Source: an alpha proteobacterium MED-G09 (GTDB lineage Bacteria; Pseudomonadota; Alphaproteobacteria; MED-G09). Taken from it: DNA of 64,000 bases. Below the pieces are notes generated by a model. The model was not told where the DNA came from, did no database searches, and was given only the letters and a program-made list of their open reading frames with translations. A program made the position numbers and the translations under genes. Numbering within the stretch: the first letter of the stretch is position 1; each line of letters begins with the position of its first letter. Positions 27,146-49,546 of this stretch are shown here, in pieces. Location of the stretch: positions 57,801 through 121,800 of the forward strand of contig CAJIZT010000008.1 in the NCBI GenBank assembly GCA_905182015.1. The letters are read 5' to 3'.

Positions 27146-27266
27146 TTTCTCGCTCTATTTAAGTTACCGAATTCAACAATATATTAACATTAAAATTACA
27201 TATGATACAAATCAGCAAAAATATAACTAATAGTCAATAATTAATGAATGATGTAAGATTGTTGTA

Positions 27267-28199: not shown

Positions 28200-28288
28200 C
28201 TATATAGCATTTATAAAAGTTTTTACTAGGTAAAATTTGTATTTTATATATGTAATGATAAATAAAATTAATAGATTAGAGTAGATAC

Positions 28289-29850: not shown

Positions 29851-29996
29851 AAAAAGGTGTGTAAGTTGTGTTAATGTATCCTTAAAAACCATATAATACC
29901 TCAAAAAAAATTATATTCATCTATTATTTTTTTTAATTATATGTATATATATATAAAATTAAAAAAATTTATAAAAACCCTTAATGAGGATTAACA

Positions 29997-31208: not shown

Positions 31209-31269
31209 AATATTTACTTATTTTAATCTATTACTATAGTATATTCCTATTGGCCAGTAAGGGGATATT

Positions 31270-32703: not shown

Positions 32704-32752
32704 AATTTTTATTCAAAATATAATAAATTCTTAATTTGTAGGAGGGTAAAGA

Positions 32753-33268: not shown

Positions 33269-33272
33269 GATA

Positions 33273-34532
33273 TTATTTTTTTAAGAATTTAATTGGTAAC
33301 TCTTTCATCTGATGAATATATAAACTTGAATGATGAGGAATCTCGGGTAGCGGTCTAGCAAGCTCTATATTTTTTAATCTTTCAAATAAGTGTATGAATG
33401 CAGTTTTCATCTCTGCTCGCGCAAGCATTGCTCCAACACAATGATGGGGGCCCGATCCAAAAGCTAAATGTTTACCAACATCCTTACGTTCAACATTAAA
33501 CTCTTCAGGATTTGTAAATATTTCTTCATCCCTATTAAATGACGCATACCTTACTAGCAAAACGCTTCCCTTCTTAATACTCTCTCCATCAATCTCAGTG
33601 TCTTCTGTTACAGTTCGAAAAAGGCCCTGAACAGGTGTTTCAAATCTGATAACCTCCTCAACAAAGTTAGGTATAAGGTCTATATCTTCAATGATTTTAT
33701 TCATTTGTTTGGGATGTTTCAATAAAAGCCAAAGTCCGTGCGCTATTGAACTTGTGGTTGTCTCATTGCCTCCGGCTAATAATTGAGCAACCAGCCCTTG
33801 AAGCTCATCATTAGTTAGGTTCTCACCTCCATCAAGCTTAAGGTTTACTAATTCAGATATAATGTCATCTGTTGGATTTTTTCTCTTATCATTGAATATT
33901 TTATCAAAATAATGTTGGGACTCTGCCTCCAGGTGAGCAGCTTTCTTCATTTCTTCTACGTTTGCAACCCCGAACGAAACAATCATTGCATCTGACCATA
34001 ACTTTAGTTTCGGGAGCATTGATCTTGGTACACCCAGCTGGTCGGCAATAATTGTAGATGGAATTGGAACCGCATAATCATTAACAAACTCACACTCGCC
34101 TTTCTCTATAAAGGAATCAATTAAGTCATTCACGACTTTTGAAATATAAGGCTGCATCTCTTTAACTCTACTAGATGTAAACGCTTTGTTTAATAATTTT
34201 CTATATTTACTGTGTAGAGGTGGGTCTGTTCTTTGAAGTGTCTCCACAAAAGACCCCACACCATAATTCTTAATAATCTCCGCATGTGCCTTAATGCCTT
34301 CGTCTTCATAGCTATCGTGCTGGGTAGGTTTATTAGAAAACTTTTTTGTATCAAGAAGAATTTGTCTTCCATCTTTATATTTTGTGATCATATAAAAGCC
34401 TAAATCAGGCATTTTATAGACTGGGCATTCTGCTCGAAGATTCTTATAGCTCTCATATGGGCAACTTTGAATCTTGGGATCCATAAAATTTATATTTTTT
34501 ATTAAAGAGCTCTGCTGATTTTTTTCTTTCAT
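33273..34532 (-). CDS. Cytochrome P450 (paralog 1).
   Basis: Heme-thiolate loop FGSGPHHCVGAMLA, an ExxR motif (EEVIRFETP), and an I-helix AGGNETT. Confidence 0.85.
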   Translation of the reverse strand: MKEKNQQSSLIKNINFMDPKIQSCPYESYKNLRAECPVYKMPDLGFYMITKYKDGRQILLDTKKFSNKPTQHDSYEDEGIKAHAEIIKNYGVGSFVETLQRTDPPLHSKYRKLLNKAFTSSRVKEMQPYISKVVNDLIDSFIEKGECEFVNDYAVPIPSTIIADQLGVPRSMLPKLKLWSDAMIVSFGVANVEEMKKAAHLEAESQHYFDKIFNDKRKNPTDDIISELVNLKLDGGENLTNDELQGLVAQLLAGGNETTTSSIAHGLWLLLKHPKQMNKIIEDIDLIPNFVEEVIRFETPVQGLFRTVTEDTEIDGESIKKGSVLLVRYASFNRDEEIFTNPEEFNVERKDVGKHLAFGSGPHHCVGAMLARAEMKTAFIHLFERLKNIELARPLPEIPHHSSLYIHQMKELPIKFLKK

Positions 34533-34724
34533 TTTTTTTATTCTTTTTAAGTTATCTATTAATTTACTCTAATTAATTGAAATAAAAATTAAATAGAAAA
34601 AATCAATTAATCGGGGTTTCATACTCAAGCATGAGCATAAAAAGTAAAATCCTTATAGAAATTTTATTACTTTCTCCTAGAATATTAAGTCTTAGTATCA
34701 ATAAAATAATGGAGGCCTTGAACT

Positions 34725-37013
34725 ATGCTAGATATCAAAAATATTCTTTTAATTACTAGTGCAATTTTTTTAATTGCCCCAGTTAACACTTTATTCTCTC
34801 AAGAATCACCGATTGAAAACACTTATGGCTTAGAAGAAATAGTTGTTACAGCTCAAAAAAGAGAGGACTCTATTCAGACAGTCCCTATAGCTATAACAGC
34901 AGTCAGCGGAGATATTTTAGATCAACGAGCTGTTGTTAATCTTGAAAGCTTACAAGGTTTAGTCCCGGGTGCCCAGATTGGACAATTCGCAAATACTCCT
35001 CATGGCGCAGTATTTAATATTAGGGGTATGGGAGCTATTGAGCCAGATCCATATGCAGGTAGTGCTGTTTTGGTTACAATCGATGGTGTTCCGCAATATT
35101 TTAATATGACCTCATTAGTTGACCTATTTGACGTTGAACGTGTTGAGGTTTTAAGGGGACCACAAGGAACTCTATTTGGTGCTAATTCCACTGGAGGCGT
35201 TGTAAATATTATAACAAAAGCTCCTTCAGGTGAATATAATGGGAAGGTCCAAGTTACTGCTGGGGATTGGAACAGATTAGATGTCAAGGCTGCTGCAGAT
35301 TTACCAATAAACGAAAAATTATCTCTTAGGCTTTCAGGCTTTCATCACGGACGTGATGGATGGATTATAAATGCTTATGACGGTTCTGACATGGGAAGTG
35401 TTAATGTAAACTCTATCCGTGCAACTTTAAGATATGATGCAGGATCCGGTTTTGAAGCAACATGGCGTAATGAAATTTTAAGATCAAAAAATGGAGGCCC
35501 GTATATAGGTATGGGCGCTTATCCAGGTGAGGCAGAATATACGGCACCGGGAACGATAGGTGCGGGACAGCATGGCGGAGTACAGTATGCCAGTTATTGC
35601 ATGCCTGAAGGTACCCCTTGTAAAGCTCGTGATACATATTATTCTGCCAATAGCTCAGAAAAAGATATGTCAGATATGAATGTAGATTCCTCAACTCTAG
35701 AAATGGTCTGGAATGATACATCATTTGGAACAATCACCTCAATTACAAGTTATAAAAAGTTTGATCTTCATGAGTACACTGATCAAGATGGTACTGTTGT
35801 ATATCATTCTGGAACAGATCGTAGGACTGACGGCGACCAAATGACTCAAGAAATAAGAATTAATTCTGAAGTTTCAGATAACATAGATGTAGTTTACGGT
35901 TTATATCTTAGTGAAGACTCGTATTATCACACACAAAACTTTAATGCTCAATTCGCTTCCCCCGGCTTTAGTCAGCTATCGTCCCAAGATCAAGAAAGAA
36001 GCTCACAAGCATTATTTGCTCATAGCTTTATTGATTTATCAGACAAACTGAGACTCCAGGTTGGTGGTCGATATTCAAAAGAAGAAGCTGATATGAAAGT
36101 TGAAGTAGTAAATTTCATAAGCTTAGATGGTATATCAAGATACTTTGGGGACGATCGTCTGGCTGATTTTGGTATAGACTTTGGTGCATCAGGTAAGGAT
36201 GAGTGGACTGATTGGTCTGCAAAAGCTGGTCTTGACTACCAAATTTCAGAGAACACTTTGGCATACGGACATATATCACGTGGCTTTAAATCTGGAGGCT
36301 TCGTTGGAAGAATTACAGTTCCTGAAGATATTGGTCCATATGATCCAGAAATAGTTGAAACCATCGAAATTGGTGTAAAAAGTGATCTATTGGATAATAA
36401 ATTAAGATTGAATATAAATATTTTTAAAAATGACTATCAAGATCTTCAATTAGCATTAATTTATTTTACAAAAAATGCAGCGGGCTTTGATGTAAATGGT
36501 AATTCAATACTTAATGCTGCCGATGCAACTACTCAAGGTATTGAAGTAGAGTTTTTCGCTGCACCATCTGCTGCCCTTAGAGTTAATGGATCAGTAACTT
36601 ATCTTGACGCAGAGTATGATGATTTTCCATACTTAAATACTGATGGTTCTACCACCAACTTAAGGGGGTATAGATTACAAAATTCTCCAGAAATTACAGC
36701 CAGCTTTGGTTTTGATTATACTTGGAGAATGGGTGATGGAGATATGAGCTTATCTGCATTATATAAATATAATGATGAAAAGTTTAATACCAGTCTATTA
36801 AACACACCTCGATCAACTATTCAGGAAACAGACTTGGTTGATGCTAATCTTATGTGGAGTCCTGACAGTGATGACTGGTCAGTAAATTTTTGGGTTAAAA
36901 ATATTGCTGACGAAAGATATATTTCTAGTGTTTTTGAGGCACCTGGAGTTTTAGCAATCGTAAACTTTTTACCCCCAAGGGAGTTCGGAGTGTCTTTTGA
37001 TTTTAATTGGTAA
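34725..37013 (+). CDS. TonB-dependent outer-membrane receptor (TBDR-1).
   Basis: Signal peptide; plug domain with EEIVVTAQKRE and VLRGPQGTLFG; a long beta-barrel ending in an aromatic residue (FDFNW). Confidence 0.85.
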   Translation: MLDIKNILLITSAIFLIAPVNTLFSQESPIENTYGLEEIVVTAQKREDSIQTVPIAITAVSGDILDQRAVVNLESLQGLVPGAQIGQFANTPHGAVFNIRGMGAIEPDPYAGSAVLVTIDGVPQYFNMTSLVDLFDVERVEVLRGPQGTLFGANSTGGVVNIITKAPSGEYNGKVQVTAGDWNRLDVKAAADLPINEKLSLRLSGFHHGRDGWIINAYDGSDMGSVNVNSIRATLRYDAGSGFEATWRNEILRSKNGGPYIGMGAYPGEAEYTAPGTIGAGQHGGVQYASYCMPEGTPCKARDTYYSANSSEKDMSDMNVDSSTLEMVWNDTSFGTITSITSYKKFDLHEYTDQDGTVVYHSGTDRRTDGDQMTQEIRINSEVSDNIDVVYGLYLSEDSYYHTQNFNAQFASPGFSQLSSQDQERSSQALFAHSFIDLSDKLRLQVGGRYSKEEADMKVEVVNFISLDGISRYFGDDRLADFGIDFGASGKDEWTDWSAKAGLDYQISENTLAYGHISRGFKSGGFVGRITVPEDIGPYDPEIVETIEIGVKSDLLDNKLRLNINIFKNDYQDLQLALIYFTKNAAGFDVNGNSILNAADATTQGIEVEFFAAPSAALRVNGSVTYLDAEYDDFPYLNTDGSTTNLRGYRLQNSPEITASFGFDYTWRMGDGDMSLSALYKYNDEKFNTSLLNTPRSTIQETDLVDANLMWSPDSDDWSVNFWVKNIADERYISSVFEAPGVLAIVNFLPPREFGVSFDFNW

Positions 37014-37039
37014 AAATATATAATATATAAGATAAATCT

Positions 37040-37100
37040 GCCTTTACGTTTTTCATCAAAATATTCTTTAATTAAGAATATTGAAGAAACGTAAGGGCAT
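37040..37100. terminator. Long AT-rich imperfect hairpin between the convergent TBDR-1 and GFA genes; a candidate bidirectional terminator.
   Basis: CCTTTACGTTTTTCATCAAAATATTCTTTA, an 8-nt spacer, then AAGAATATTGAAGAAACGTAAGGG as imperfect inverted arms. T-runs follow on both strands. Confidence 0.35.
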
Positions 37101-37117
37101 TTTTATTTCTTTAAAGC

Positions 37118-37525
37118 CTAAGATATAGGATTCCTTTTAAAGCTTGGAAGATCATCATTTACTGGGTCCCATTTATTTGCAGAGATACTCCAGTAACTTG
37201 ATTCCGCTTTAACCCAAGAGGAATTATCTAGACTGCCAGCCTTTATGAATCTCAGATCAGGCTGCTCTGTTACATAGCTTATAACTGGAGAACCACAATC
37301 TGGACAAAAACCTCTATTTACATTAGTTCCGTCTGTGCCAATAACAGAATATATTTTGAAATCCATACTAATTTCTAAATCCTCAGTTGGAACAAATATA
37401 ATCGTTGCCTTTCCTGACCCTGTTGCTCGCTGACAGTCAGCACAATGACAATGACCCGAAGAAAGAACTCTTTCTCTATTAAATTTATAACGAATTTTAC
37501 CGCATAAACATCCACCTGTTTCCAT
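37118..37525 (-). CDS. GFA (glutathione-dependent formaldehyde-activating / CENP-V-like) family zinc protein.
   Basis: CLCGKIRY, then GHCHCADCQRATGS, then GFCPDCGSPV: the characteristic Cys pattern of PF04828. Confidence 0.7.
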   Translation of the reverse strand: METGGCLCGKIRYKFNRERVLSSGHCHCADCQRATGSGKATIIFVPTEDLEISMDFKIYSVIGTDGTNVNRGFCPDCGSPVISYVTEQPDLRFIKAGSLDNSSWVKAESSYWSISANKWDPVNDDLPSFKRNPIS

Positions 37526-37547
37526 TATTATTCTCCTTCCTTTATTG

Positions 37548-38558
37548 CTATTCCATTTCCTTTATCCATTCATAGATAACAGGCAAAGCTTCTTTATGAC
37601 TCAGACTTCTACTGAGTTCTGGCATCATGACACCTGGATCTGTTGAAGCCATTCTGAACAAAAGAATGGATTCCTCTGGCTTACCAGGATTAATAACGTA
37701 TTCCATATTGCCGCTTCCTCTTCCGGCCGCCACAGGTTTTTTCATAACACCAATCGCCATCCTACCAACCTCTTCTAAGGAAAGATAAAGTCCAGAATTA
37801 CCTGCTGAACCTCCTTTTCTGTGACAGTGAGCACAATTAGAATCTAAATAAGACCTTGCTCTTTCAGGAATTAAAAAGGTTTCATCATTCCAAATAGCTG
37901 GCTTTATCATTTTTTTCTTAGGAACGTCCTTGAGTAACTTATTTTCTTCCCAATAGTCTATTTGATTTTCTTTACCACTTTGATAGAAAAAATCTAAATC
38001 CATATTTCTACCTTTAGGACCGATTGGCATTATTGCTTTATTGAGTTGGTGACAAGACTTACACTGATTAATATTTGGAACTCTATATCGAGCATTCCTT
38101 ACATTTCCATTCTTATCTATCCAATTAGCTTCTATGGTTTTACCAATAAATTTTAATTTTGCATCTGTTTGATTTTCATTCCATACATAAGAAACAGGTG
38201 TCCATCCTTCTTTTTTATGAATCAAAAGTCTTGTCTCAAGCAATTGAAACCCTTTCTTTAAATCCCTATCATCAACTGGGTAAGCGAAAGTCTTGATTAT
38301 TGTTGTTCCAAGAGGAAAATTAAAGATATTTTCGTAGTTATAGGACGCTACCTTATTGTCTGGCATTGAAATAAAACGAAATTTATAGGTATAGTCTGAA
38401 AATAAAGGATTAGCTATATGATAAGGTATCACCCCCTCTTTTGGAATCTGCTCTCTAATATTTTTAAAAAAATTATACTCTGATAAAAATAAAGGCTCTG
38501 CTTTTAGCGAACTTATTAGAAAAAACGTCACAAGGATAATTATAAAATATTTTATCAA
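37548..38558 (-). CDS. Secreted diheme c-type cytochrome (SO_2930-like family).
   Basis: Signal peptide, two CxxCH motifs (CKSCH, CAHCH), and a Met-rich C-terminus (DPGVMMPELS). Confidence 0.65.
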   Translation of the reverse strand: MIKYFIIILVTFFLISSLKAEPLFLSEYNFFKNIREQIPKEGVIPYHIANPLFSDYTYKFRFISMPDNKVASYNYENIFNFPLGTTIIKTFAYPVDDRDLKKGFQLLETRLLIHKKEGWTPVSYVWNENQTDAKLKFIGKTIEANWIDKNGNVRNARYRVPNINQCKSCHQLNKAIMPIGPKGRNMDLDFFYQSGKENQIDYWEENKLLKDVPKKKMIKPAIWNDETFLIPERARSYLDSNCAHCHRKGGSAGNSGLYLSLEEVGRMAIGVMKKPVAAGRGSGNMEYVINPGKPEESILLFRMASTDPGVMMPELSRSLSHKEALPVIYEWIKEME

Positions 38559-38563
38559 ATGAG

Positions 38564-39799
38564 CTAATCCTGTAAAAAGACTACAGGCTTAATAGACTCT
38601 AACTCGCCCATATAATTACTGTAATTGTTATCAATCTTATGAATTATTGGTACTAAAAATTTTGTCATTAATTTTAAATTAACAAAATCTGCTTTGCCAG
38701 ATTCTGTAAAATTACTTCCCAGGGTTACTCTACTGGAGGGACTAATACCTATCCATTCAATAAACGGGACAACGCCATCCCAAACGATTTCAGGAATCTT
38801 GCCATTTATAGCATCGGATATAGGCTTAGCCCTTACCTTATCAACATCAAATCCATTATTATTTAAAGTATTGCCATGAATATAAATATGATTTCCTATT
38901 GGATCATAGTTTTTATCTTCTGCCTCATCCTGATAGCTTGCAATTAAAATGCCAGTTGTTGCATTATTCTTGATTACATTATCTCTTATCTCAACAAATT
39001 GATTGGCCATAATCATTATACCAGTGCCATTTGGTGTGTTCCCAACAATATTTCCTTCGGGTGCAAAATTCTTAGTGTCATTATTAATAACAAGATTATT
39101 TGCCACTAAAATATCATGACCACCTTGCTGAGGAAGGTCGGGCAAATCAAAAATCAGAATACCTCCTGTATTATGTTCTGCAGTATTACCTATAACTTCT
39201 GCAAAATAACTGTTTTCGATCTCAATACCTGCGACATTATATTTTGCTAAACTATTTAAAACTTTTATTCTTTCAGATTGGCCAACATAAATTCCAGCAT
39301 CTGATGCACCTATCGCTATACAGCTATCTATTAAGACATCACTGCTTTGAACGGGATAAAGACCATAGGCTCCATTTGATTCTTTTGGACCACCCGTCCA
39401 CTCAACCCGAATCCTAATAAAACTAATGCCATTGGCTCCTTTAACAACAATTGCATCTCCAATCGTATCCTCGATAGCAAAATCTTTTAAAACAACACCG
39501 CTTGAAGTTACTAATAAACCCTCTGCACCTGATTTCTGATTCTTAAAAGATAAAATTGTTTTATCTTCACCTTCACCTGCAACAGTTACGTTGTCTATAT
39601 CTAAAGATAGGCCATCCTCAAATTCGAAAATTCCTTCTGATAATTGGATTAGATCACCTGGTTTTGAAAAAATTAATGCTTTTTGTATTTCGTCATAAGC
39701 ACGAGGGCCAGGCTGGATCGTATTAGAAAAAAGAGAACTGATTAAACCTATAAAAACAAAAATATTTAAAATAATAATATTTAAGAATTTTTTTTTCAT
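38564..39799 (-). CDS. Secreted parallel beta-helix repeat protein.
   Basis: Signal peptide, then repeated Asn/Gly-rich rungs (NNLVINNDTKNF, GNTPNGTGIMIMANQFVEIRDNVIKNNATTGILIAS). Confidence 0.65.
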   Translation of the reverse strand: MKKKFLNIIILNIFVFIGLISSLFSNTIQPGPRAYDEIQKALIFSKPGDLIQLSEGIFEFEDGLSLDIDNVTVAGEGEDKTILSFKNQKSGAEGLLVTSSGVVLKDFAIEDTIGDAIVVKGANGISFIRIRVEWTGGPKESNGAYGLYPVQSSDVLIDSCIAIGASDAGIYVGQSERIKVLNSLAKYNVAGIEIENSYFAEVIGNTAEHNTGGILIFDLPDLPQQGGHDILVANNLVINNDTKNFAPEGNIVGNTPNGTGIMIMANQFVEIRDNVIKNNATTGILIASYQDEAEDKNYDPIGNHIYIHGNTLNNNGFDVDKVRAKPISDAINGKIPEIVWDGVVPFIEWIGISPSSRVTLGSNFTESGKADFVNLKLMTKFLVPIIHKIDNNYSNYMGELESIKPVVFLQD

Positions 39800-39803
39800 A
39801 GAA

Positions 39804-41051
39804 TTATCTTTTTCTAAATTTAATATGAAGCTCTTTTAGCTGATGTAAAAAAATACTCGGTTGATGAGGAATATCTGGTAGGTCTTTAGCTAGCTCGATA
39901 CCATCAATACGATCGAAGAAATGTTTAAAGGCTGCTAGCATTTCCGCCCTAGCCAAACTTGCCCCGATACAATGATGAGCGCCTGATCCAAAAGCAAGAT
40001 GTTTTCCAACATCTTTTCGTTCCACATTAAATATCTCAGGATCCTCGAATATATCTTCATCTCTATTTAATGCAGCATATCTGACCAGAAGAGTACTTCC
40101 TTTTGGGATCTTTACACCTCTCATCTCAGTATCGACTGTTGCCGTTCTAAAAAGGCCTTGAACAGGGGTCTCATAACGAATAGTTTCCTCAATAAATTTT
40201 GAAATAAGATCGTTATTTTCCATAACTTTTTTCATTTGCTCTGGGTGTCTTAATAATAACCACATTCCGTGCGCTATTGAACTTGTTGTTGTCTCATTTC
40301 CACCTGTTAATAATTGATTGATCAGATCTTGAAGCTCATCTTCTGTTAACTTTCTTTCTCCATTAAAGTCAGCATTAACTAACTCTGATATAATATCGTC
40401 TGTAGGTTTTATTCTTTTTTCCTCAAAAATACCTTTAAAATAATGTTGGGACTCAACCTCAAGACGAGCCGCATTTTCCATCTCCTCCACACTCGCCATC
40501 CCGCTAGCCGGAATTAACATTGCATCTGACCAGGATTTAAATTTACCTAAGTACTCTCTTGGAACACCTAACTGATCAGCAATAATTGTACACGGAATAG
40601 GCACGGCATATTCTGAAACAAAATCACATTCGCCGTTATCAATAAACCCATCAATTAAGTCATTGACGACACCAGAAATGTAAGGATTCATTTCCTTAAC
40701 CCTGCTTAAGCCAAAGGCTTTATTTAAAAGTTTACGATATTTTGTATGAATTGGCGGATCTGTTCTTTGGAGTGTCTCTGGTCTTTTACCAAAACCCTCG
40801 GTATTCATTATTTCATGATGGCGTTTTACGCCTTCACTTTCATAGCCTTGTTGATGTGAGTATGTATTAGAAAAAGTAACGGTATCTTTCATAACCATCC
40901 TAGCATCATCATACTTCGTGATCATATAAAATCCTACCTCTGGCATCTTATAGACAGGACACTCGGATCTAAGGGTTTTATAAGCTTCATAAGGACAGCT
41001 TTGTGTTGCCGGGTCCATAAAGCTTATCGATTCTAAGTCTAATTTACTCAT
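39804..41051 (-). CDS. Cytochrome P450 (paralog 2).
   Basis: FGSGAHHCIGASLA, an ExxR motif (EETIRYETP), and TGGNETT. It shares about 60% identity with paralog 1 by eye. Confidence 0.85.
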   Translation of the reverse strand: MSKLDLESISFMDPATQSCPYEAYKTLRSECPVYKMPEVGFYMITKYDDARMVMKDTVTFSNTYSHQQGYESEGVKRHHEIMNTEGFGKRPETLQRTDPPIHTKYRKLLNKAFGLSRVKEMNPYISGVVNDLIDGFIDNGECDFVSEYAVPIPCTIIADQLGVPREYLGKFKSWSDAMLIPASGMASVEEMENAARLEVESQHYFKGIFEEKRIKPTDDIISELVNADFNGERKLTEDELQDLINQLLTGGNETTTSSIAHGMWLLLRHPEQMKKVMENNDLISKFIEETIRYETPVQGLFRTATVDTEMRGVKIPKGSTLLVRYAALNRDEDIFEDPEIFNVERKDVGKHLAFGSGAHHCIGASLARAEMLAAFKHFFDRIDGIELAKDLPDIPHQPSIFLHQLKELHIKFRKR

Positions 41052-41075
41052 AAAAATCCCCCCCGAGATAATTTT

Positions 41076-41984
41076 TTATACTCTATCCCAATTATGTTTT
41101 TTTATCCAATCTTCAAAATACGTTGGCTTAACGCCTAGCATTTTATAAACTGGATCCATATCAACCGCCAGAGGTGACGGGTTTTGTTCATTATACCAGC
41201 TATAAAAAGCAGCCATCCCCCCATAAATAGATTGGTCCTCATATACTTCTGATCCGGTCACCAATTTACTCATTGATCCAGCAAAATTTTCCGGCTTCAG
41301 GCTTGAGAAAGTAATTTCACGACCAAGTACTTTTGTAAATTTTTTAGCTACCTCATCTCCAAGAAGAACCTCGGGACCCCCGACTAGAATCTTATCTCTT
41401 TTAAAGTTATTATTAGATAACGCTGCAACCATAAAAGCCGCCACATCATCAAGACATATCCATGATATTTTTAACTCTGGTGAGCATGGGTAGGCAAAGG
41501 TATTATTATTTGTAATAGATGGTTTAGACCAAAAACGAGTAAGGTTATCCATAAAGACTACTGACCGAATAACAACATACTCCATGCCGCTTTCTTCCAT
41601 ACACCTTTCAATCTCTCTTCTTCCATCATGAGCCTCTAAACCATTATCCTTGGGCGCAACATAACAACTGGTATTAAAAACAATTTTCTTTACTCCCATT
41701 TTTGCACCGGCTTTTGTAATATTTTCCCCCCATTGTTTTGCGGTTGCTTTATCAAAAACAAATGGCAAATTCATTGCGATAGCATCAACTCCATCGGATG
41801 CAACCATTAGGGATTCTAAGTCAAAAAGATCGGCTCGAATTGTTTCAATATTTTTAGAAAAGTCATCATTATATTCTGAAGGATTCCGAGTTACTGCTCG
41901 AACCTTATATCCTTTTTCCAATAATACATTCACAAGTGGTACGCCCTGATCTCCACTAGCTCCATAAACAAGGATTTTATTCAT
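41076..41984 (-). CDS. NmrA-like NAD(P)-binding protein. The tracked ORF extends to 42005; the likely start is MNKILVYGASGDQG.
   Basis: N-terminal Rossmann motif LVYGASGDQG. The size fits the NmrA/PCBER family. Confidence 0.65.
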   Translation of the reverse strand: MNKILVYGASGDQGVPLVNVLLEKGYKVRAVTRNPSEYNDDFSKNIETIRADLFDLESLMVASDGVDAIAMNLPFVFDKATAKQWGENITKAGAKMGVKKIVFNTSCYVAPKDNGLEAHDGRREIERCMEESGMEYVVIRSVVFMDNLTRFWSKPSITNNNTFAYPCSPELKISWICLDDVAAFMVAALSNNNFKRDKILVGGPEVLLGDEVAKKFTKVLGREITFSSLKPENFAGSMSKLVTGSEVYEDQSIYGGMAAFYSWYNEQNPSPLAVDMDPVYKMLGVKPTYFEDWIKKHNWDRV

Positions 41985-43623
41985 TATAGCTCTCCTTACT
42001 AACATAATTATTACCAGCGGCGTGTCTACCTGCTAAATATCCGTAAGTTAAGGCTGGTCCTAATGTTCCTCCAGCACCTGCATAAACAGACCCGGTACTT
42101 CCTGACATAGCGTTCCCGACTGTATAAAGGCCCTCGATAACACTTCCTGATGCTGAAATAACTCTCCCAAGCTCGTCTGTCCTTGCGCCACCATTTGTTC
42201 CTAATGCTCCAATATTAATTTCAGCAGCAAAGTATGGAGCTTTTTCAAGTTTGCCTAAAGTTGAATAGACGCCAGCCTTAGATCGATCGCCATAGAATGA
42301 ATCGTACTCACTTTTACCCCTAGAAAACTCTATATCATCCCCGTTCTCAACATAAGAATTAAAAAAATTTACTGTTTCAATTAAATTTTCAGAATTGATA
42401 TCCAGTTCCTCGGCCAAGCCTTCTAAAGTACCCGAATGCTTTAGCCAGTCTGGGTTTTCAGATCCAGGCATTACATTAGCAAAAGGGTATTTATCTCTAT
42501 AATTAGAATCAAAGATTATCCATGATGGTAAATTTGGATACCCGTATTCATTTGGATCAAAAAAATGAAATGCACCTGCTAGTGCAGAATAATTAGTTGC
42601 TTCGTTACAAAATCTTTTTCCAAACTTATTGACCATAAGAGAGTGCGGAAGAGTTCTTTCAATTAAAATAGGCGATGATTTTTGCCCTCCCTCAGGCCAA
42701 TTATCGCCAGGTATGGATAGAACGGGAGACCACCAAGCGCTTGTCATATTTCCAAGAGATGCTCCGATTTCTTGTACCATTTTCAATCCGTCACCATCAT
42801 TTCCTGGAGGAGAAGCTGGAGCATTTAAAGGGCCACGTAAAAAAGTAGAAACAAAATCTTTATTCCACTCAAAACCGCCAGTTGCAATAATTACTCCTCG
42901 CCGAGCAATAATAGTTTCCAAAACACCATCCTGTTCAATTTCAATACCAATAATTCTTTCACCTTCCTTAATTAACTTTTTAGTTTTTATTTCTAATTGT
43001 GGTTCAATACCTCTATCAAGGCAGCCCTTCAAAAGAGCTCCAACCAATGCTTGTCCAAACCCTCTTGAATCCTTTTTAACCCGCTTAGACATTATTTCGT
43101 TTGAAATAATCCCTGTCCCACCTCCTAGTGGGGTTTCGGCTAAGGTCATAGGAATAGGCATACCATTGTTTCTGACCTTTGAGGCCCAGTCACCCAGGAT
43201 AGAAAAATCAAACAGTTTGTTATCTAATGCACGGCCGCCATCCTTAAGGGCGCCAGGCCTATCAAGATAGTAATCGGGATATCCCTCTAGAATGGAAAAC
43301 TCTGCATCAGTTTTTTCTTCTAAAAAGTCTAAAGCTTCACCGCAATTATCAATAAATGCTTCTAGTAGGGATTGATTTATTTCTCCCTGCGAGAGAGACA
43401 TGAAATAATCAATAGATTTAGTTCTATCATCTTGTATGCCTTTTTTCTTCATGTGGCTATTCATCGGAGCCCAAATTATACCTCCAGAAATACCTGCCGT
43501 TCCTCCCACTAAAGATTGTTTTTCAAAAATCTTTACTGATGAACCACTTTCATGGGCACTAAGTGCAGCCATCATGCCGCTAGCGCCTGCACCTAAGATC
43601 ACTACATCAACTTCTTTTTTCAT
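41977..43623 (-). CDS. FAD-dependent oxidoreductase of the fumarate-reductase flavoprotein / 3-ketosteroid-delta1-dehydrogenase (KstD)-like family.
   Basis: N-terminal VDVVILGAGASGMMAAL, a C-terminal GLYTVGNAMSGSTGSVYAGAGGTLG, and an FAD_binding_2 architecture. The product is 548 aa. Confidence 0.75.
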   Translation of the reverse strand: MKKEVDVVILGAGASGMMAALSAHESGSSVKIFEKQSLVGGTAGISGGIIWAPMNSHMKKKGIQDDRTKSIDYFMSLSQGEINQSLLEAFIDNCGEALDFLEEKTDAEFSILEGYPDYYLDRPGALKDGGRALDNKLFDFSILGDWASKVRNNGMPIPMTLAETPLGGGTGIISNEIMSKRVKKDSRGFGQALVGALLKGCLDRGIEPQLEIKTKKLIKEGERIIGIEIEQDGVLETIIARRGVIIATGGFEWNKDFVSTFLRGPLNAPASPPGNDGDGLKMVQEIGASLGNMTSAWWSPVLSIPGDNWPEGGQKSSPILIERTLPHSLMVNKFGKRFCNEATNYSALAGAFHFFDPNEYGYPNLPSWIIFDSNYRDKYPFANVMPGSENPDWLKHSGTLEGLAEELDINSENLIETVNFFNSYVENGDDIEFSRGKSEYDSFYGDRSKAGVYSTLGKLEKAPYFAAEINIGALGTNGGARTDELGRVISASGSVIEGLYTVGNAMSGSTGSVYAGAGGTLGPALTYGYLAGRHAAGNNYVSKESYNE

Positions 43624-43685
43624 TTAACTTTTCCTTTTGAGAAACATTAATCAAAAAATTAGAATTTATCTAGATAAAAAAAAGG

Positions 43686-43701
43686 GCTCCGCGGAGCCCT
43701 A
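43686..43701 (-). terminator. Intrinsic terminator just downstream of TBDR-2 (GC-rich palindrome with a U-run on the minus strand).
   Basis: GGGCTCCGCGGAGCCC is a perfect palindrome. It is flanked by AAAAAAAA on the plus strand, which is an 8-U tail on the minus strand. Confidence 0.6.
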
Positions 43702-43725
43702 ATTTAATCAATTAAGAACAATAAG

Positions 43726-46116
43726 TTAGAATTTACCAGTTAGGCGAACACCGTAAGTTCTATTTGCTATAGTATTAGCAAAAAACCAGTTACCAACATC
43801 AACAGCACGTCCTAACCTAGCGCCTTGATGACCAAGATCATTTACGAATGCAGAAATTTCTACTTCAGGACCTCCAGCCATTAACTCACCCTCATAGGTT
43901 ACAGAAACATCAAGCATTCCCCAAGCAGCATATTTAGAAAATTTATCGCCTAAATCATCAATACCAACGTAAGAATACGGTGAAGAGTAATTTTCAGCTG
44001 TATAGCTATAGTTAATATTGAAAGCAATTTCTCCTAAGCCAGCCGCAAAAAAGAACTCAGTTCCAACAGACCATGTTTCCTCAGGAGCACCACGGAAATT
44101 TCTTGTTGATTTGACATCATTTCCAAATTGGTCAAGAAAGGAATCATATCCAGCATCCAAATATCCATAAGTCATAGTTGAAATCCAATTGCTATTAATT
44201 AGATATTGAGCATCAATTTCAAAACCCTGCATTGTCGCTGAGGCTGCATTATCAACAATAGTTTCAACAGTATCAGAAAAAGGAGAGTCCCTTAGAATTT
44301 CCTCTTGTTTGTCGGAATATTCCATATCAAAAATTGCCATATTTAATCTAAGGCTACCATCCATAAGAATAGACTTCAAACCAACTTCGATATTCGTAAC
44401 TTCTTCAGGGTCGTATGGTCCAACAGTTGATGGAGTTAATCCACGACCATTCCAACCACCACTTCTAAAGCCTTCAGACCATGTTGCATAAAGATTAACA
44501 TTATCAGTTGCTGCGAAAGTTAAACTTACTCTGGGAGTAAAGGCGTCATAAGTAGCTGTACCAGTTCTGCAGCCCTCAATTGTAGAGGTAGGATCTGGAC
44601 AGGATGATATTAAAGGTAAAGGTGACCCATCTGCCTGTTTGCCAAATTCCTTTGAACTTAATGGCATAGGTACTGCTAGTGAAGTATCATAAACATCACT
44701 TTGGAAATCTTTTGTTTCTTCCGTATAACGACCACCTACAGCCAGCTGAACTCTGTCATTAATTTCATAGGTAAATTCACCAAAAACAGCTTGCGCCTCT
44801 GCTTGTTGCCTTGCAGAAAATTGCTGAACTAAGCCACCAAAGAAAAAGAATTTTTGTGGACTAAGGGCATATTCACTTTCAAAATAATATGCACCCGCAA
44901 CAAAGTTAAAAGGACCATCATAATTACTTCTAATTTGAAATTCTTGACTCTTTTGTTCGTATGTTTGAGGTCTGTTTGGAACAAAATTGTAAACGCCAGG
45001 TCCAAATAGATTAACCATTCCGCCATTTTCTTCATAAAGCCAATCGTCTGATTCCCAACCAGCAGTAATTGATTTAAAGCTAAAATCGCCTATATCCCAG
45101 CTCATATTCAAAGACCATGAGTCCGCTTCAACTGTTGATATAAAAGGATGATCAGATAATTGTACTGTAAAATCATTAGCCTTTTGAACATCATAACCAG
45201 TTGTGTAGCAGGCATTAGCTCCAAAAGCATCGCACAGTGTGCCTGGATGAGGTGTTCTGGAACCTGGTAATGTTACATTTACAGGTAATGGGTATTCTGA
45301 TTGATCATCCATTGTTTCGATTGTTAGTAATGCTTCAAAATTGTAATCATTTTGTGGGGTAAACAAGAAAGTTCCGTACATACTAGTAATGTCAGCACCT
45401 TTAACCTGGTCTCCATCATTATAAAAATCTCCGCCTGCGCCAGGTCCAATTTTTGCCCAGCTATCACCTTCAGTTTTATAAGCAGCCAATTTAAGAGCTA
45501 ATACATCTTTAATAATTGGGAAATTCAAAACAGCCTTAAACTCTGTTTTATCATAATTAGAAAGGCCTACGGACACTTTTCCGCCAAATTCTCCTGTAGG
45601 ACGACTTCTGGTGATATTAATAACACCACCAACGGTATTTCTTCCAAAAAGAGTACCTTGTGGACCTCTAAGCATTTCTACAGATTCAATATCAAACATC
45701 TCAATATTGGCACCAGTTGTTGTTCCAAAGAAAACTCCATCTAATGAAATGCCAACTGCAGGTTCAAATGATTTTTCTAAATCACTAAAGCTTATTCCTC
45801 TAATAGAAGCATTAATTCCACCACCTGTATAATTATTTCGATCCAAAACAACATTTGGAGCAAATCTCTGTAAATCATCAAGATCTGTTAAAAATGATCT
45901 TTCAATTGTTCTTGCGTCAATTGCTGTTATCGCAATTGGAACATCTTGAGTAGATTCTTCTCTTTTACGAGCAGTAACAATAATCTCCTCTATTGAATAA
46001 CCAGTTTCTTCTGGTAATGATGTACTTTCATCGGCAGAGATATTTGTGTTAAGAAATAAAAAAGGTAGTGAAAGCGCTATTACGCTTTTATAAAAAAATT
46101 TCATATTTTTCCCCAT
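43726..46116 (-). CDS. TonB-dependent outer-membrane receptor (TBDR-2).
   Basis: Signal peptide; plug domain with EEIIVTARKRE and MLRGPQGTLFG; a beta-barrel ending in a terminal F. Confidence 0.85.
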   Translation of the reverse strand: MGKNMKFFYKSVIALSLPFLFLNTNISADESTSLPEETGYSIEEIIVTARKREESTQDVPIAITAIDARTIERSFLTDLDDLQRFAPNVVLDRNNYTGGGINASIRGISFSDLEKSFEPAVGISLDGVFFGTTTGANIEMFDIESVEMLRGPQGTLFGRNTVGGVINITRSRPTGEFGGKVSVGLSNYDKTEFKAVLNFPIIKDVLALKLAAYKTEGDSWAKIGPGAGGDFYNDGDQVKGADITSMYGTFLFTPQNDYNFEALLTIETMDDQSEYPLPVNVTLPGSRTPHPGTLCDAFGANACYTTGYDVQKANDFTVQLSDHPFISTVEADSWSLNMSWDIGDFSFKSITAGWESDDWLYEENGGMVNLFGPGVYNFVPNRPQTYEQKSQEFQIRSNYDGPFNFVAGAYYFESEYALSPQKFFFFGGLVQQFSARQQAEAQAVFGEFTYEINDRVQLAVGGRYTEETKDFQSDVYDTSLAVPMPLSSKEFGKQADGSPLPLISSCPDPTSTIEGCRTGTATYDAFTPRVSLTFAATDNVNLYATWSEGFRSGGWNGRGLTPSTVGPYDPEEVTNIEVGLKSILMDGSLRLNMAIFDMEYSDKQEEILRDSPFSDTVETIVDNAASATMQGFEIDAQYLINSNWISTMTYGYLDAGYDSFLDQFGNDVKSTRNFRGAPEETWSVGTEFFFAAGLGEIAFNINYSYTAENYSSPYSYVGIDDLGDKFSKYAAWGMLDVSVTYEGELMAGGPEVEISAFVNDLGHQGARLGRAVDVGNWFFANTIANRTYGVRLTGKF

Positions 46117-46285
46117 AGTAATAAAATATTATTTTCGATAAGCATGATTATAGTGTTTTTTATTAATTACAAGTGCATACGCATCTAAGAGTATCGATTT
46201 CTAAATTAATGACTTATTCAAGGATATTGGGTCACAGATAAATAAAATATTTAGGCAAATATTACAATTGGATAGTCAAGAAAAA

Positions 46286-46304
46286 GGCTCCGGGGAGCGG
46301 AGCC
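46286..46304. terminator. Orphan GC-rich hairpin with flanking A5 and T4 runs inside a 457-bp intergenic region.
   Basis: AAAAA GGCTCCG GGGAG CGGAGCC TTTT. The stem sequence matches the 43686 hairpin. No gene lies upstream on either strand for it to terminate. Confidence 0.4.
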
Positions 46305-46573
46305 TTTTAGCTTAAAGACTATTTTTAAGACTTATACTTATACTTATATTTATACTTGTACTAGTTTACACATTATGGTGATGCCCTAATAAATACCACG
46401 CCAAACATCAGGGTAGAGTGATTTAAATAATCATAGCTGCGTACGTAATACTGCGTATCAATTTAATGGAAACCAATTATAGTAATTTTACAAAATTTTT
46501 TTTGTAAATTACAACAGATACTGGTTCAATGAATAAAGAATAATTTAAATAATCATATAGAGGAAAAATAGTT

Positions 46574-47362
46574 ATGGATTTAGGAATTCGCGGCAAAAAA
46601 GCTATTATAAATGGCGGTAGTGCAGGCATGGGTAAGGGTAGTGCCATAGCCCTTGCCAGAGAAGGTGTTGACCTAGTCATATCATCTCGAGGAGAGGAGA
46701 GGCTTGAAAATACTTGTGAAGAAATAAGAAAAGAAACTGGTGTAAATGTTGTTGCAGTAGCTACAGACCACAGTACTGATGAAGGAAGGGAAAAAATAAT
46801 AAAAGCATGTCCTGACCCAGATATTTTAGTTGGAACATCTTCGCCTCCAATGCATACCCCTGACTATGAGAGTATCTCTCCAGATGACTGGAGGGAAACT
46901 CTAGAGGTATCCCTTCTTAGCCCAGTTTCATTTATGAAAGAATTAATTCCAGGTATGGTAAAGAGAAAATGGGGAAGAATTGTTAATATTGGAACTGGTG
47001 CTGCAAAAACACCTGCTGAAGTAAGAATTTTGTCAGGTGGTCCAAGGGCAGCATTAGTAAATTATTCTGTCGCAGTTTCTAAAAAAGTTGCAAGGCATAA
47101 TGTTGCAATAAATAATATTTTGCCTGGAATGCATCATACAGCTGCAACAGGGGAAAGATATTTGAAGCTCGCTGAAGAAAATGGTACTTCGTATGATGAG
47201 GAAATTTTTGAGTTCGCAAAAAAATGGAGGATACCAGCTAGAAAATTTGGTACCTCACAGGATTTTGGAGATTTTGTGGCAATGTTTTGTAGTGAACAAG
47301 CAACGTATATCATTGGTCAAAGTTTAGTGATTGACGGTGGTATCGATAATACAACATTTTAG
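46574..47362 (+). CDS. SDR-family oxidoreductase (atypical).
   Basis: N-terminal AIINGGSAGMGKGSAIALA glycine-rich motif and an NIGTGAA segment. The classical YxxxK motif is not obvious. Confidence 0.6.
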   Translation: MDLGIRGKKAIINGGSAGMGKGSAIALAREGVDLVISSRGEERLENTCEEIRKETGVNVVAVATDHSTDEGREKIIKACPDPDILVGTSSPPMHTPDYESISPDDWRETLEVSLLSPVSFMKELIPGMVKRKWGRIVNIGTGAAKTPAEVRILSGGPRAALVNYSVAVSKKVARHNVAINNILPGMHHTAATGERYLKLAEENGTSYDEEIFEFAKKWRIPARKFGTSQDFGDFVAMFCSEQATYIIGQSLVIDGGIDNTTF

Positions 47363-47373
47363 GGATAAAAATT

Positions 47374-48165
47374 ATGTCAGACAAAACAATACTTCTAGAT
47401 ATTCAAGATAAGATTGGGACGATTACACTAAATAGACCAGAAAGAAAAAATGCAATTAATTCAACCATGGTGAATGAATGGGTAGAAATTTTGGATGAGT
47501 GTAGAGATAATCCAGAAATTTCAGCCATTATATTAACTGGTGCCGGTGAAGCCTTTTGTGCCGGAGGAGATAAAGCAAATCTTGGAGCAAATAATAAAAT
47601 AGATCCTCTCGAGACAAAAAATCATTTTTGGGATCATTTCCAAAGAGTTGCCAAAAGAACTGCATTAATAGAAAAGCCTATAGTGGCGGCTGTTAATGGA
47701 ATGGCTACAGGTGCAGGTATGGATATGAGTCTTCATTGTGATATTCGTTTTGCTGCAAAGAGTGCTATATTTAGAGCCTCTTATGCTGCATTTGGTTTAG
47801 TCCCGGGTAATGGAGGAACTTATTTTCTTCCTCGAATAGTAGGAACCTCCAAAGCATTAGAACTTTTTTGGTCTACTGATGTGATAGATGCTGAGGAAGC
47901 CCTAAGAATTGGTCTTATTAACAAAGTTTTTTCTGCAGATGATTTGATGGAAAAAACAAGAGAATGGGTGAGTAATGTTCTTAACCAAGCGCCAATTCCA
48001 GTAAGAGTAATTAAAAGGCTTATATATCAAAACGTAAATATGGACTTAAATACAAGTTTAGATTTAATTTCATCCCATATGGCGTTTGCCAGAACAAGTG
48101 AAGATCACGCAGAGGCTATTGCGGCTTCCGAAGAAAAAAGAACTCCAAAATTCAAAGGCAAATGA
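47374..48165 (+). CDS. Enoyl-CoA hydratase/isomerase (crotonase fold).
   Basis: FCAGGD oxyanion-hole motif and VAAVNGMATGAGMDM. The product is 263 aa. Confidence 0.8.
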   Translation: MSDKTILLDIQDKIGTITLNRPERKNAINSTMVNEWVEILDECRDNPEISAIILTGAGEAFCAGGDKANLGANNKIDPLETKNHFWDHFQRVAKRTALIEKPIVAAVNGMATGAGMDMSLHCDIRFAAKSAIFRASYAAFGLVPGNGGTYFLPRIVGTSKALELFWSTDVIDAEEALRIGLINKVFSADDLMEKTREWVSNVLNQAPIPVRVIKRLIYQNVNMDLNTSLDLISSHMAFARTSEDHAEAIAASEEKRTPKFKGK

Positions 48166-48190
48166 TTATCTTAATAATAAAGGATTTAAA

Positions 48191-49543
48191 ATGAATATTA
48201 CAGATATTGATTGGAAAAAAAGAAACGCCGAAAACTGGAAGCAGCAAAACCTTAGCAATACTCTTGTGGATGGAAGCCGTTACAATTCTCAGGAATTTAT
48301 GAATAAGGAATGGCAGTATATGTGGCCGAAAGTTTGGCTATTGCTTGGACGAGAGGAAGAGGTACCCAATCCAGGTGATTATCAAATGGAAGAATTTGGA
48401 AAAGAAAGCTTCTTGATGATACGACAAGACGACGGTTCCATAAAATCATTTTACAATGTTTGTCAGCATAGAGGTGCAAGACTGACGTTTAATGACCAGG
48501 GAACTGCCGAAACATTCAAATGTCCTTATCACGGTTGGAAATGGAGAAAGGATGGAAAACTTATCGAAGCTCAAGATGCTGAGGATTTTCCTCAAGGAAA
48601 TCCTTGCGATAATTTAACTCTAGAGGAAGTAAAAACAGAAACATTTGCAGGTTTTATTTGGATTAATATGGATAAGAATGCCTGTACATTAAAAGAATGG
48701 CTCGGACCTGTATGGGAGGACTGGGAGGCTTATGAAATTCATAAGTGGAAAAGATATGTAGCGCAAACAGTAAATATGCCATGTAATTGGAAGATCGTAT
48801 TAGATAATTTTAATGAATCTTATCACCTAAACACCGTTCATGCGCCAGAAAAAGCAGTAACAAAAAAGAGAATGCCTAGTGGCGTTGATACAAGTTACCG
48901 TAATACACAATTTGATCTAGCAACTGAAGGTCATAATAGGATGATTATGAAGGCCGGTTATGGACCAGCTGGATCATTTGAAGATGGAGGAATAATTGAG
49001 GATCCACTTGCATCTGTAATGAAAGACTGGGGCCTTAATCCAGAAAAATATTCAGGAAAAGGTTTTGATACTAGGGAGGCAATTCAAACTGCTAAAAGAA
49101 AATTAGGCCCGGAAAGAGGTTACACACATTATAAAAATTTACGTGATGAACAACTCACTGATGCATTTCATTATACTCTATTTCCAAATTTTGCTGTTTC
49201 ATTGTGGGCGGATGGATTTCATTTTTTAAGGGCAAGGCCGCATGCAACAGACCCTGAAAAATGTATCTTTGATAACTGGTGGTATTCAAGTAATCCAGAA
49301 AATGAAACATCACCTATTCGAAGTACTGTTGGAGTTCACGAAAGAGGAAAATTTGCTGATTTTCCTGATGCCTTTGAACACGGAGAAAAAAGTCTTGGTC
49401 AAACAATTGATCAGGATGCAGTTGTCTTTATTTTCCAAAAATTTGGTTTAAGGTCTAGGGGTTTCAATGGTGCATATTTCGCTGGCCAAGAAAAAAGAGT
49501 GCATCGTTTTCATCAGATGATTGAATCATATTTTGAGGAATAA
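48191..49543 (+). CDS. Rieske non-heme-iron oxygenase alpha subunit (paralog C). The tracked ORF starts at 48086, inside the crotonase gene; the ATG at 48191 has an AAGGA ribosome-binding site.
   Basis: FYNVCQHRGARL...CPYHGWKW and NFNESYHLNTVH. Confidence 0.85.
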   Translation: MNITDIDWKKRNAENWKQQNLSNTLVDGSRYNSQEFMNKEWQYMWPKVWLLLGREEEVPNPGDYQMEEFGKESFLMIRQDDGSIKSFYNVCQHRGARLTFNDQGTAETFKCPYHGWKWRKDGKLIEAQDAEDFPQGNPCDNLTLEEVKTETFAGFIWINMDKNACTLKEWLGPVWEDWEAYEIHKWKRYVAQTVNMPCNWKIVLDNFNESYHLNTVHAPEKAVTKKRMPSGVDTSYRNTQFDLATEGHNRMIMKAGYGPAGSFEDGGIIEDPLASVMKDWGLNPEKYSGKGFDTREAIQTAKRKLGPERGYTHYKNLRDEQLTDAFHYTLFPNFAVSLWADGFHFLRARPHATDPEKCIFDNWWYSSNPENETSPIRSTVGVHERGKFADFPDAFEHGEKSLGQTIDQDAVVFIFQKFGLRSRGFNGAYFAGQEKRVHRFHQMIESYFEE

Positions 49544-49546
49544 AGA

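Follow-up and report, generated by a model that had tools for sequence, protein, structure and literature searches.

A marine alphaproteobacterial gene cluster with a putative ring-oxidation cassette is probably a lineage-specific mosaic assembled by inversion and cassette insertion

Results

Seven minus-strand genes make up the cluster

The DNA analysed is a 64-kb window (the whole stretch, from contig CAJIZT010000008.1) of an organism within the OCS116/PS1 clade of marine Alphaproteobacteria. The closest species-representative genomes are Rhodobiaceae MED801 (locus L012), OCS116-cluster single-cell genomes and one PS1-clade genome. The subject of this work is a cluster of seven minus-strand open reading frames (ORFs), in which the gene of a TonB-dependent receptor (TBDR) is followed by six genes that we divide into modules A and B. 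A sequence-only reading had described all seven as resembling an uptake-plus-oxidation module for hydrophobic ring compounds such as steroids or terpenoids. Its ORF coordinates and domains were confirmed with Pfam and NCBIfam models, and its gene identities proved correct on domain models and motifs. In the direction of transcription the genes are as follows.

43726..46116, minus strand: TBDR-2, a TonB-dependent outer-membrane receptor (Plug and barrel domains; below every NCBIfam subfamily cut-off)
41977..43623, minus strand: KstD-like FAD flavoprotein, the core of module A (PF00890, FAD_binding_2, 216 bits)
41076..41984, minus strand: NmrA-like NAD(P)-binding atypical short-chain dehydrogenase/reductase (SDR), 302 amino acids (PF05368, 108 bits against a cut-off of 27)
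39804..41051, minus strand: cytochrome P450-2, class-I type, third gene of module A (PF00067, 119 bits)
38564..39799, minus strand: periplasmic parallel beta-helix protein, first gene of module B (TIGR03805, 372.3 bits against a cut-off of 141.5)
37548..38558, minus strand: SO2930-family dihaem c-type cytochrome, periplasmic, module B (TIGR03806, 370.6 bits against a cut-off of 313.3)
37118..37525, minus strand: GFA/CENP-V family zinc protein, cytoplasmic, module B (PF04828, 91 bits)

From TBDR-2 to GFA, the successive gaps on the minus strand are 102, -8, 24, 4, 5 and 22 nucleotides (nt). The earlier description of overlaps or gaps of at most 22 nt among the six genes therefore holds for most junctions and fails for P450/NmrA, which measures 24 nt. 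The 8-nt overlap of the flavoprotein and NmrA-like genes was found as described, and gene callers use the same start. The start of the dihaem gene is ambiguous: the TTG at 38558 retains the signal peptide and agrees with the N termini of orthologues, and the later start chosen by gene callers leaves a 32-nt gap. Signal peptides were present on the beta-helix protein and the dihaem cytochrome and absent from the flavoprotein, NmrA-like protein, P450 and GFA protein. Thus, the proteins of the cluster fall in two compartments.

Comparative synteny separates modules A and B

Gene order in related genomes indicates that the cluster is probably a lineage-specific mosaic of three independently evolving units lying in an oxygenase-rich island. 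One genome per species was scanned with an alignment of flavoprotein homologues, which returned 80 loci; the window proteins were then mapped onto these and onto loci reached through individual homologues. The exact flavoprotein was also present on many marine metagenome contigs, with identical synteny.

The flavoprotein-NmrA-P450 order of module A was found at every OCS116/PS1 species locus (9/9). The flavoprotein-NmrA pair extends further, to 24 of the 56 loci of Sphingomonadales, Caulobacteraceae and Halieaceae with gaps of 18-63 nt, and the pair also occurs in loci L008, L009 and L078. In L078 (Novosphingobium fuchskuhlense) it sits among Rieske/SnoaL_4 pairs, SDRs, a medium-chain dehydrogenase/reductase (MDR)-type reductase and a TBDR.

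The complete six-gene order was restricted to the window population and MED801. Module B lies directly downstream of the P450 gene at just 1/9 species loci, and at most others it is located elsewhere or on the opposite strand. The beta-helix/dihaem pair of L010 and L014-L020 is found without GFA at a distance of 8-9 kb, on the opposite strand. In L091:8920-12684 and L092:8917-12684 the beta-helix/dihaem/GFA trio directly follows the housekeeping gene nudC (NUDIX) with a gap of 4-7 nt. Two more distant genomes (L093, L094) carry the beta-helix/dihaem pair alone in unrelated gene contexts, and the pair was found at none of the 56 flavoprotein loci from other orders. GFA follows the dihaem gene in L012, L091 and L092 and is a variable third gene of module B. 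The trio behind nudC in L091 and L092 is as operon-like as the trio behind the P450 gene in the window.

Gene-order maps of the window against L010, L013, L014, L016, L091 and L092 revealed one further feature.

22545..39799, no strand assigned: inverted block of about 17 kb, between NudC (21430-22383) and the P450 gene

The genes of this block lie between the same flanks but are reversed relative to the majority OCS116/PS1 arrangement, and MED801 is also inverted. The maps indicate that an in-place inversion brought the beta-helix gene to 4 nt behind the P450 stop, thereby fusing module B to module A.

TBDR-2 has the appearance of an inserted cassette

TBDR-2 stands beside the flavoprotein gene only in the window's own population (L001-L006). 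The spacing between the flavoprotein start and a divergent SDR gene is 121-161 nt in other lineages. The features around TBDR-2 are listed below.

43675..43700, minus strand: intrinsic terminator of TBDR-2, AGGGCTCCGCGGAGCCCT followed by T8 (hairpin and T-run in the sequence)
46281..46308, no strand assigned: terminator-like hairpin upstream of TBDR-2, AAAA GGCTCCG CTCCC CGGAGCC TTTTT (stem same as in the downstream terminator)
43636..43682, minus strand: conserved 5' block ahead of the flavoprotein gene (kept in the window, MED801, L013, L016 and L010 by alignment)
46574..50065, plus strand: divergent SDR, enoyl-CoA hydratase, Rieske alpha and SnoaL_4 set, module A's conserved neighbours in OCS116/PS1

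An intrinsic terminator had been proposed behind TBDR-2, and we found it as a 7-bp GC-rich stem followed by T8, at 43700-43683. The window holds two copies of the stem GGCTCCG...CGGAGCC, one on each side of TBDR-2 and no others, where chance would give none; of 94 loci, the six with TBDR-2 are the only ones that have the pattern. The paired hairpins look like the ends of an inserted cassette. We therefore describe TBDR-2 as its own predicted transcription unit, a lineage-specific cassette that separates the divergent SDR gene from the putative promoter region of the flavoprotein gene. Because the conserved block, which all OCS116 lineages share, directly follows the downstream hairpin, the native 5' region of module A appears to have survived the insertion.

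The upstream hairpin ends no obvious gene. It lies within the 457-nt TBDR-2/SDR spacer, which contains no ORF and in which no riboswitch or small RNA family was matched at the Rfam threshold. In L014 a different TBDR (L014:1184-3451), 27-30% identical to TBDR-2 and to the second receptor of the window, TBDR-1, occupies the same slot between the SDR and flavoprotein genes. This points either to a recurrent insertion site or to a recurrent association. A TBDR lies within 10 kb of the flavoprotein gene at 15 of the 56 loci of other orders, a count that we judged, with no formal test, not to be clearly above background for the TBDR-rich Sphingomonadales.

Predicted transcription signals and gene packing

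The six-gene unit is followed by a long hairpin in the spacer between the convergent GFA and TBDR-1 genes.

37029..37111, no strand assigned: long hairpin, convergent GFA/TBDR-1 spacer (minimum free energy -24.3 kcal/mol, z = -4.3, 0/200 shuffles as stable)

This hairpin is probably a bidirectional terminator that ends the six-gene unit. No strong terminator was found between any of the six genes, which makes their co-transcription plausible in this lineage. The six genes have the features expected of a single operon (one strand, short gaps and no internal terminator), but their spacing is no tighter than the norm of the genome. Across the window, the median gap between neighbouring genes on one strand is 18 nt, 23/43 such gaps do not exceed 22 nt, and the coding density is about 94%. 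Operon-like tight spacing is therefore unremarkable here, since short gaps are the default packing of this genome. The six genes probably share one predicted transcript in this lineage, and we regard that transcript as an accident of genome compaction and not as a sign of one pathway.

The conserved 5' block (about 45 nt) ahead of the flavoprotein gene contains the palindrome TTATCTAGATAA at 43666-43677, directly after the downstream hairpin of TBDR-2. The block could be a promoter, with a putative -35 element TAGATA, a 17-nt spacer and a -10 element TAATGT, or an operator. A role of TTATCTAGATAA as the operator of a regulon was rejected, since the window has no second exact copy and holds near-matches only at the chance level. 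A scan of the window for sigma-70 promoters gave counts equal to the shuffle expectation and is thus uninformative in such AT-rich DNA.

The flavoprotein is of the KstD type

The flavoprotein carries a dinucleotide-binding motif (GxGxxG) near its N terminus, DVVILGAGASG. Among solved structures its best match was AcmB (320 bits, E = 2e-94), followed at a distance by KstD1 (185 bits, 3e-53) and cyclohexanone dehydrogenase (E = 1e-43). The fumarate reductases (about 1e-26; Fcc3 about 95 bits) and the urocanate reductase UrdA (87 bits, 9e-24) scored far below AcmB, and TIGR01813 gave 166 bits against a cut-off of 285, so that the protein is not placed with the fumarate/urocanate reductases. The sequence-only reading had called this protein KstD-like and had named a fumarate/urocanate reductase clade as the placement that would count against it; the protein falls on the KstD side of FAD_binding_2 and the call stands.

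The catalytic residues of KstD1, Y119, Y318, Y487 and G491, align to Y118, Y345, Y514 and G518 of the flavoprotein, and these four positions are invariant in 15 homologues down to 55% identity. A predicted chemistry of alpha,beta-desaturation beside a ring carbonyl (delta-1 type) is well supported. The FAD_binding_2 fold and the tetrad are shared with KstD1 of Rhodococcus erythropolis (PDB 4C3X) and AcmB of Sterolibacterium denitrificans (PDB 7P18), but the window protein reaches only about half the equivalog score and no steroid-pathway genes were recognised in the window beside it. The KstD equivalogs of NCBIfam were missed (PRK07843, 412.7 against 788 bits; PRK12844, 405 against 789 bits). 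The top NCBIfam model was ChcC1 (NF053676, 4-oxocyclohexanecarboxylate desaturase), at 440.3 bits and below its cut-off of 1000. Homologues of the flavoprotein are labelled 3-oxosteroid 1-dehydrogenase by the Joint Genome Institute (JGI). An NmrA-like partner is not known to be part of kstD loci. The flavoprotein cassette joins the alicyclic desaturation cassettes of the KstD/ChcC type as a further member, unusual in having a partner of the NmrA type.

Cyclohexanone dehydrogenase of Alicycliphilus denitrificans (PDB 8AM3) has the tetrad and mechanism in common with the window flavoprotein and uses them on monocyclic ketones (PMC10966990). A 213-codon ORF lies antisense within the flavoprotein gene (42629-43270, plus strand); its product is proline/serine-rich and of low complexity, and it is almost certainly no gene.

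The NmrA-like protein and the variable P450

The NmrA-like protein has the glycine-rich NAD(P) motif GASGDQG. Its closest solved structures are the ring ketoreductases KstA11 and SimC7 and the quinone reductase YtfG.

P450-2 carries the haem-thiolate loop FGSGAHHCIG, the EXXR motif as ETIRYE and the I-helix acid-alcohol pair in GGNETT. The fold, haem Cys loop, EXXR and I-helix motifs are shared with class-I P450s of the CYP109Q5, CYP125/CYP142 and CYP107 types. The best solved relative is the terpene/steroid monooxygenase CYP109Q5 (PDB 6GMF; 36% identity), and the top matches have E-values of about 1e-60. Members of one CYP family are by convention at least 40% identical, but P450-2 is just 35-36% identical to CYP109Q5 and CYP125. 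Assignment to the steroid C26-monooxygenases CYP125/CYP142 was accordingly rejected, at 34.7% identity to the CYP125 ancestor (CYP125MRCA). CYP152/CYP153 was rejected as well: the CYP152 model gave 20.6 bits where its cut-off is 600, and none of the top 60 PDB matches bears the name of an alkane or fatty-acid hydroxylase, the named types being CYP109, CYP125, CYP107, CYP142 and PikC. P450-2 is thus a generic class-I enzyme closest to CYP109Q5, and the fatty-acid or alkane hydroxylase placement that the sequence-only reading had named as contrary evidence was not what we found.

A paralogue, P450-1 (33273-34532), lies in the same window and is 67% identical to P450-2. The P450 in the third slot of module A is 85% identical to P450-2 in MED801 and 45-47% identical in the other lineages (L010, L013-L020; for L016:12566-13810 the value is 45%), whereas the flavoprotein and NmrA-like proteins of the lineages with a divergent P450 retain 70-78% identity and the flanking genes 70-80%. 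The position is conserved and its occupant is not, which suggests either paralogue replacement or rapid divergence.

Module B encodes a widespread periplasmic pair

The beta-helix protein and the dihaem cytochrome both score above the cut-offs of TIGR03805 and TIGR03806, are encoded by adjacent genes (5-nt gap) and both have signal peptides, as in the pair described by these models (the SO2930/HNE_0200-family cytochrome and its partner). Here the pair lies additionally behind a P450 gene and is followed by GFA. The haem-binding motifs of the cytochrome are CKSCH and CAHCH (two CxxCH). A literature search for a published function of the TIGR03805/TIGR03806 pair found none in the library searched and gave only unrelated items and an electron-transfer network paper. 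We consider it a widespread and uncharacterised periplasmic pair whose role may be unrelated to module A.

Neither protein had a meaningful sequence match in the PDB. The predicted beta-helix fold is nearest to polysaccharide epimerases/lyases, in a model with a predicted local distance difference test (pLDDT) score of 67 built on a shallow alignment (relatives 73-100% identical). The N-terminal domain of the dihaem protein is weakly like cytochrome P460/c'-beta, and Foldseek against the PDB gave no significant match. Cytochromes P460/c'-beta bind NH2OH and NO. In lineages in which the modules are not fused (L010:18474-20695, L014, L016) the dihaem gene stands tail to tail with an ammonium transporter gene, which may be a coincidence. 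The Cys clusters of GFA are present in the translation of the third gene; identity with Gfa proper was rejected (TIGR02820, 18.3 against 234.55 bits; NF003829, 17.3 against 249 bits). Since the flavoprotein has no export signal, the periplasmic cytochrome cannot directly accept its electrons.

The cluster lies in an oxygenase-rich island

Housekeeping genes (yidC, dnaX, recR, def, fmt, nudC, L21, obg) occupy 1-22 kb and 61.5-64 kb of the window. Between these flanks is an oxygenase-rich island of about 39 kb (22.5-61.4 kb), with five Rieske alpha subunits, three SnoaL_4 proteins and the two P450s. Its transport genes encode the two TBDRs and three major facilitator superfamily transporters, and the island carries two transporters of the GPH-type glycoside/glucuronide family. 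Several SDRs, an enoyl-CoA hydratase, two amidohydrolases, two metallo-beta-lactamase-fold proteins and a dienelactone hydrolase are also encoded there, together with two small ABM-like ORFs. The Rieske proteins of the island are of the alpha/beta type and none is near any named equivalog.

The 64-kb window yielded no recognisable gene for a ferredoxin, a reductase or a transcription factor; its unannotated gaps, scanned for ferredoxin and reductase genes, held just the two ABM-like ORFs. These lie at 24854-25204 (minus strand, 116 amino acids) and 54510-54809 (plus strand, 99 amino acids) and have a common ELWED..SL..H motif. Both fell below the ORF threshold of 120 amino acids and hence outside the Pfam scan. 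The former occupies the position of a Pfam ABM-domain gene in the relatives L010 and L092. Steroid-nucleus genes (kshAB, hsaABCD and others) were likewise not recognised in the window. The sole Rfam match at the gathering threshold in the window was a tRNA gene at 9024-9097 (plus strand).

In the freshwater sphingomonad locus L078:5797-19039 the genes run SDR, SnoaL_4, SDR, Rieske alpha, flavoprotein, NmrA, MDR reductase, SDR, TBDR, Rieske alpha and SnoaL_4. This set nearly matches the OCS116 island, but it has no P450 and no beta-helix/cytochrome pair. Our searches for functional genomic or oxygenase literature on OCS116/PS1 found none in the library covered and turned up only community surveys.

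Discussion

The notion of a single uptake-plus-oxidation module holds in part. A ring-oxidation trio is indeed conserved (9/9 loci), but the six genes are not one conserved unit and TBDR-2 is confined to its own population. The stronger form of this notion is that TBDR-2 and the six genes constitute one integrated pathway for a hydrophobic ring compound, in which the periplasmic beta-helix and dihaem proteins would pre-process the substrate, for instance by taking off a glycosyl or uronate conjugate or by an oxidation in the periplasm, ahead of the P450/KstD chemistry in the cytoplasm. The arrangement itself is consistent with this: the genes are on one strand with gaps of 4-24 nt, no internal terminator and hairpins at both ends, and the fusion is kept in MED801. 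The likeness of the beta-helix fold to polysaccharide epimerases/lyases, the two glycoside/glucuronide-family transporters on the island and the second, unrelated TBDR in the same slot in L014 also point in this direction. We nevertheless consider an integrated pathway unlikely. Most OCS116/PS1 lineages carry the beta-helix/dihaem pair apart from module A, and the flavoprotein loci of other orders lack it (0/56). It also occurs alone in unrelated contexts and looks equally operonic behind nudC, tight spacing is the genomic norm, and TBDR-2 has its own predicted terminators and is missing from all other lineages.

A second alternative is that module A carries out true degradation of steroid or sterol ring A, with a 3-ketosteroid delta-1-dehydrogenase, a sterol-hydroxylating P450 and a 3-hydroxysteroid dehydrogenase-like NmrA protein. 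The best solved relative of the flavoprotein, AcmB, is a cholest-4-en-3-one delta-1-dehydrogenase, the KstD tetrad is conserved, CYP109Q5, the CYP125 ancestor and CYP142 are among the top solved relatives of P450-2, and the JGI naming of the homologues agrees. On the other side, the flavoprotein reaches only about half of the KstD equivalog cut-offs and scores higher with the monocyclic ChcC1 model, P450-2 is below 40% identity to any steroid P450, and cyclohexanone dehydrogenase uses the same tetrad on monocyclic ketones. Furthermore, a KshA-type oxygenase, a meta-cleavage gene and a side-chain beta-oxidation set were not seen in the 64-kb window, and its alpha/beta-type Rieske proteins match no named equivalog. 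The steroid or terpenoid substrate named as an example by the sequence-only reading is therefore not specifically indicated, since the best-scoring model is monocyclic, the equivalog cut-offs are missed and steroid hallmark genes were not seen in the window. The evidence favours such a substrate no more than it favours monocyclic alicyclic acids or ketones, and we regard a dedicated steroid unit as unlikely.

It is very improbable that module A instead supplies tailoring enzymes for the biosynthesis of a secondary metabolite, as the best NCBIfam models of P450-2 (cyclodipeptide-associated, SolI, pentalenolactone synthase) and the polyketide ketoreductases among the best structures of the NmrA-like protein could imply, because genes for a polyketide synthase, nonribosomal peptide synthetase, terpene synthase or cyclodipeptide synthase are missing from the window, module A is surrounded by genes for transporters, Rieske oxygenases, hydrolases and a hydratase, and the Novosphingobium flavoprotein-NmrA pair is set among Rieske, SDR and TBDR genes.

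Several points weigh against a mosaic of three units with module A as its oxidative core. At least two species-level lineages, that of the window and MED801, have kept the fused order, with 4-9 nt at the junction; the fusion is thus tolerated and may be under selection. Parsimony on unrooted comparisons is the basis for the direction of the inversion and for the ancestral arrangement, and co-transcription, promoter and terminators are all predictions. All enzyme assignments are made at 35-45% identity and below every NCBIfam equivalog cut-off. NmrA-family proteins can act as NAD-sensing regulators and not as enzymes. The P450 step may differ among lineages, since the P450 of the third slot diverges far more than its neighbours, and no ferredoxin or reductase gene for P450-2 was recognised in the window.

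The mosaic reading places the conserved chemistry in module A, which most likely hydroxylates an alicyclic ring, interconverts its alcohol and ketone and introduces an alpha,beta double bond. We propose this reaction sequence because a P450, a dehydrogenase and a delta-desaturase match both the aromatisation of cyclohexanecarboxylate and the activation of steroid ring A. P450 hydroxylation, dehydrogenation and delta-desaturases form the established aerobic route of cyclohexanecarboxylate aromatisation (PMC9795900). The same reaction logic is encoded by the chc pathway of Sinomonas cyclohexanicum (P450 ChcA, dehydrogenases ChcB, desaturases ChcC1/ChcC2), but in the window the dehydrogenase is of the NmrA type, there is one desaturase and not two, and no ferredoxin or reductase genes are adjacent.

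By this scheme the P450 would hydroxylate an unactivated C-H of the alicyclic substrate, with a ferredoxin and reductase encoded elsewhere, and the NmrA-type NAD(P) enzyme would interconvert the resulting alcohol and ketone. The KstD-like flavoprotein would then desaturate alpha,beta to the carbonyl, with Tyr345 as the base, Tyr118 assisting and hydride transfer to FAD, while the carbonyl would be polarised by Tyr514 and the amide of Gly518. The enone, or a phenol upon further desaturation, may pass to the neighbouring Rieske/SnoaL_4 oxygenases, SDRs, hydratase and hydrolases.

A wider reading, to which we give only a small chance, is that module A works together with the Rieske/SnoaL_4 oxygenases around it as a funnel that aromatises dissolved alicyclic organic matter in OCS116/PS1, an abundant clade of streamlined surface-ocean bacteria. 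Material derived from terpenoids or sterols, carboxyl-rich alicyclic molecules and compounds similar to cyclohexanecarboxylate would be candidate substrates. The route would lead from ring hydroxylation to the ketone, through KstD-type desaturation to enones or phenols, and on to attack by a Rieske dioxygenase. The exchangeable P450 of the third slot would set the substrate range of each lineage, and the flavoprotein-NmrA/Rieske/TBDR set of freshwater Sphingomonadales would represent the same pathway.

For streamlined genomes, the cluster illustrates that any same-strand run of genes looks operonic when the median gap is 18 nt; only comparative synteny exposed its assembly by inversion and cassette insertion. 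The TIGR03805/TIGR03806 proteins stand out as a widespread periplasmic system that is still without a known function. If module A and the island do oxidise alicyclic compounds, they would offer a concrete set of enzymes by which an abundant uncultured marine clade turns over dissolved organic matter that contains rings.

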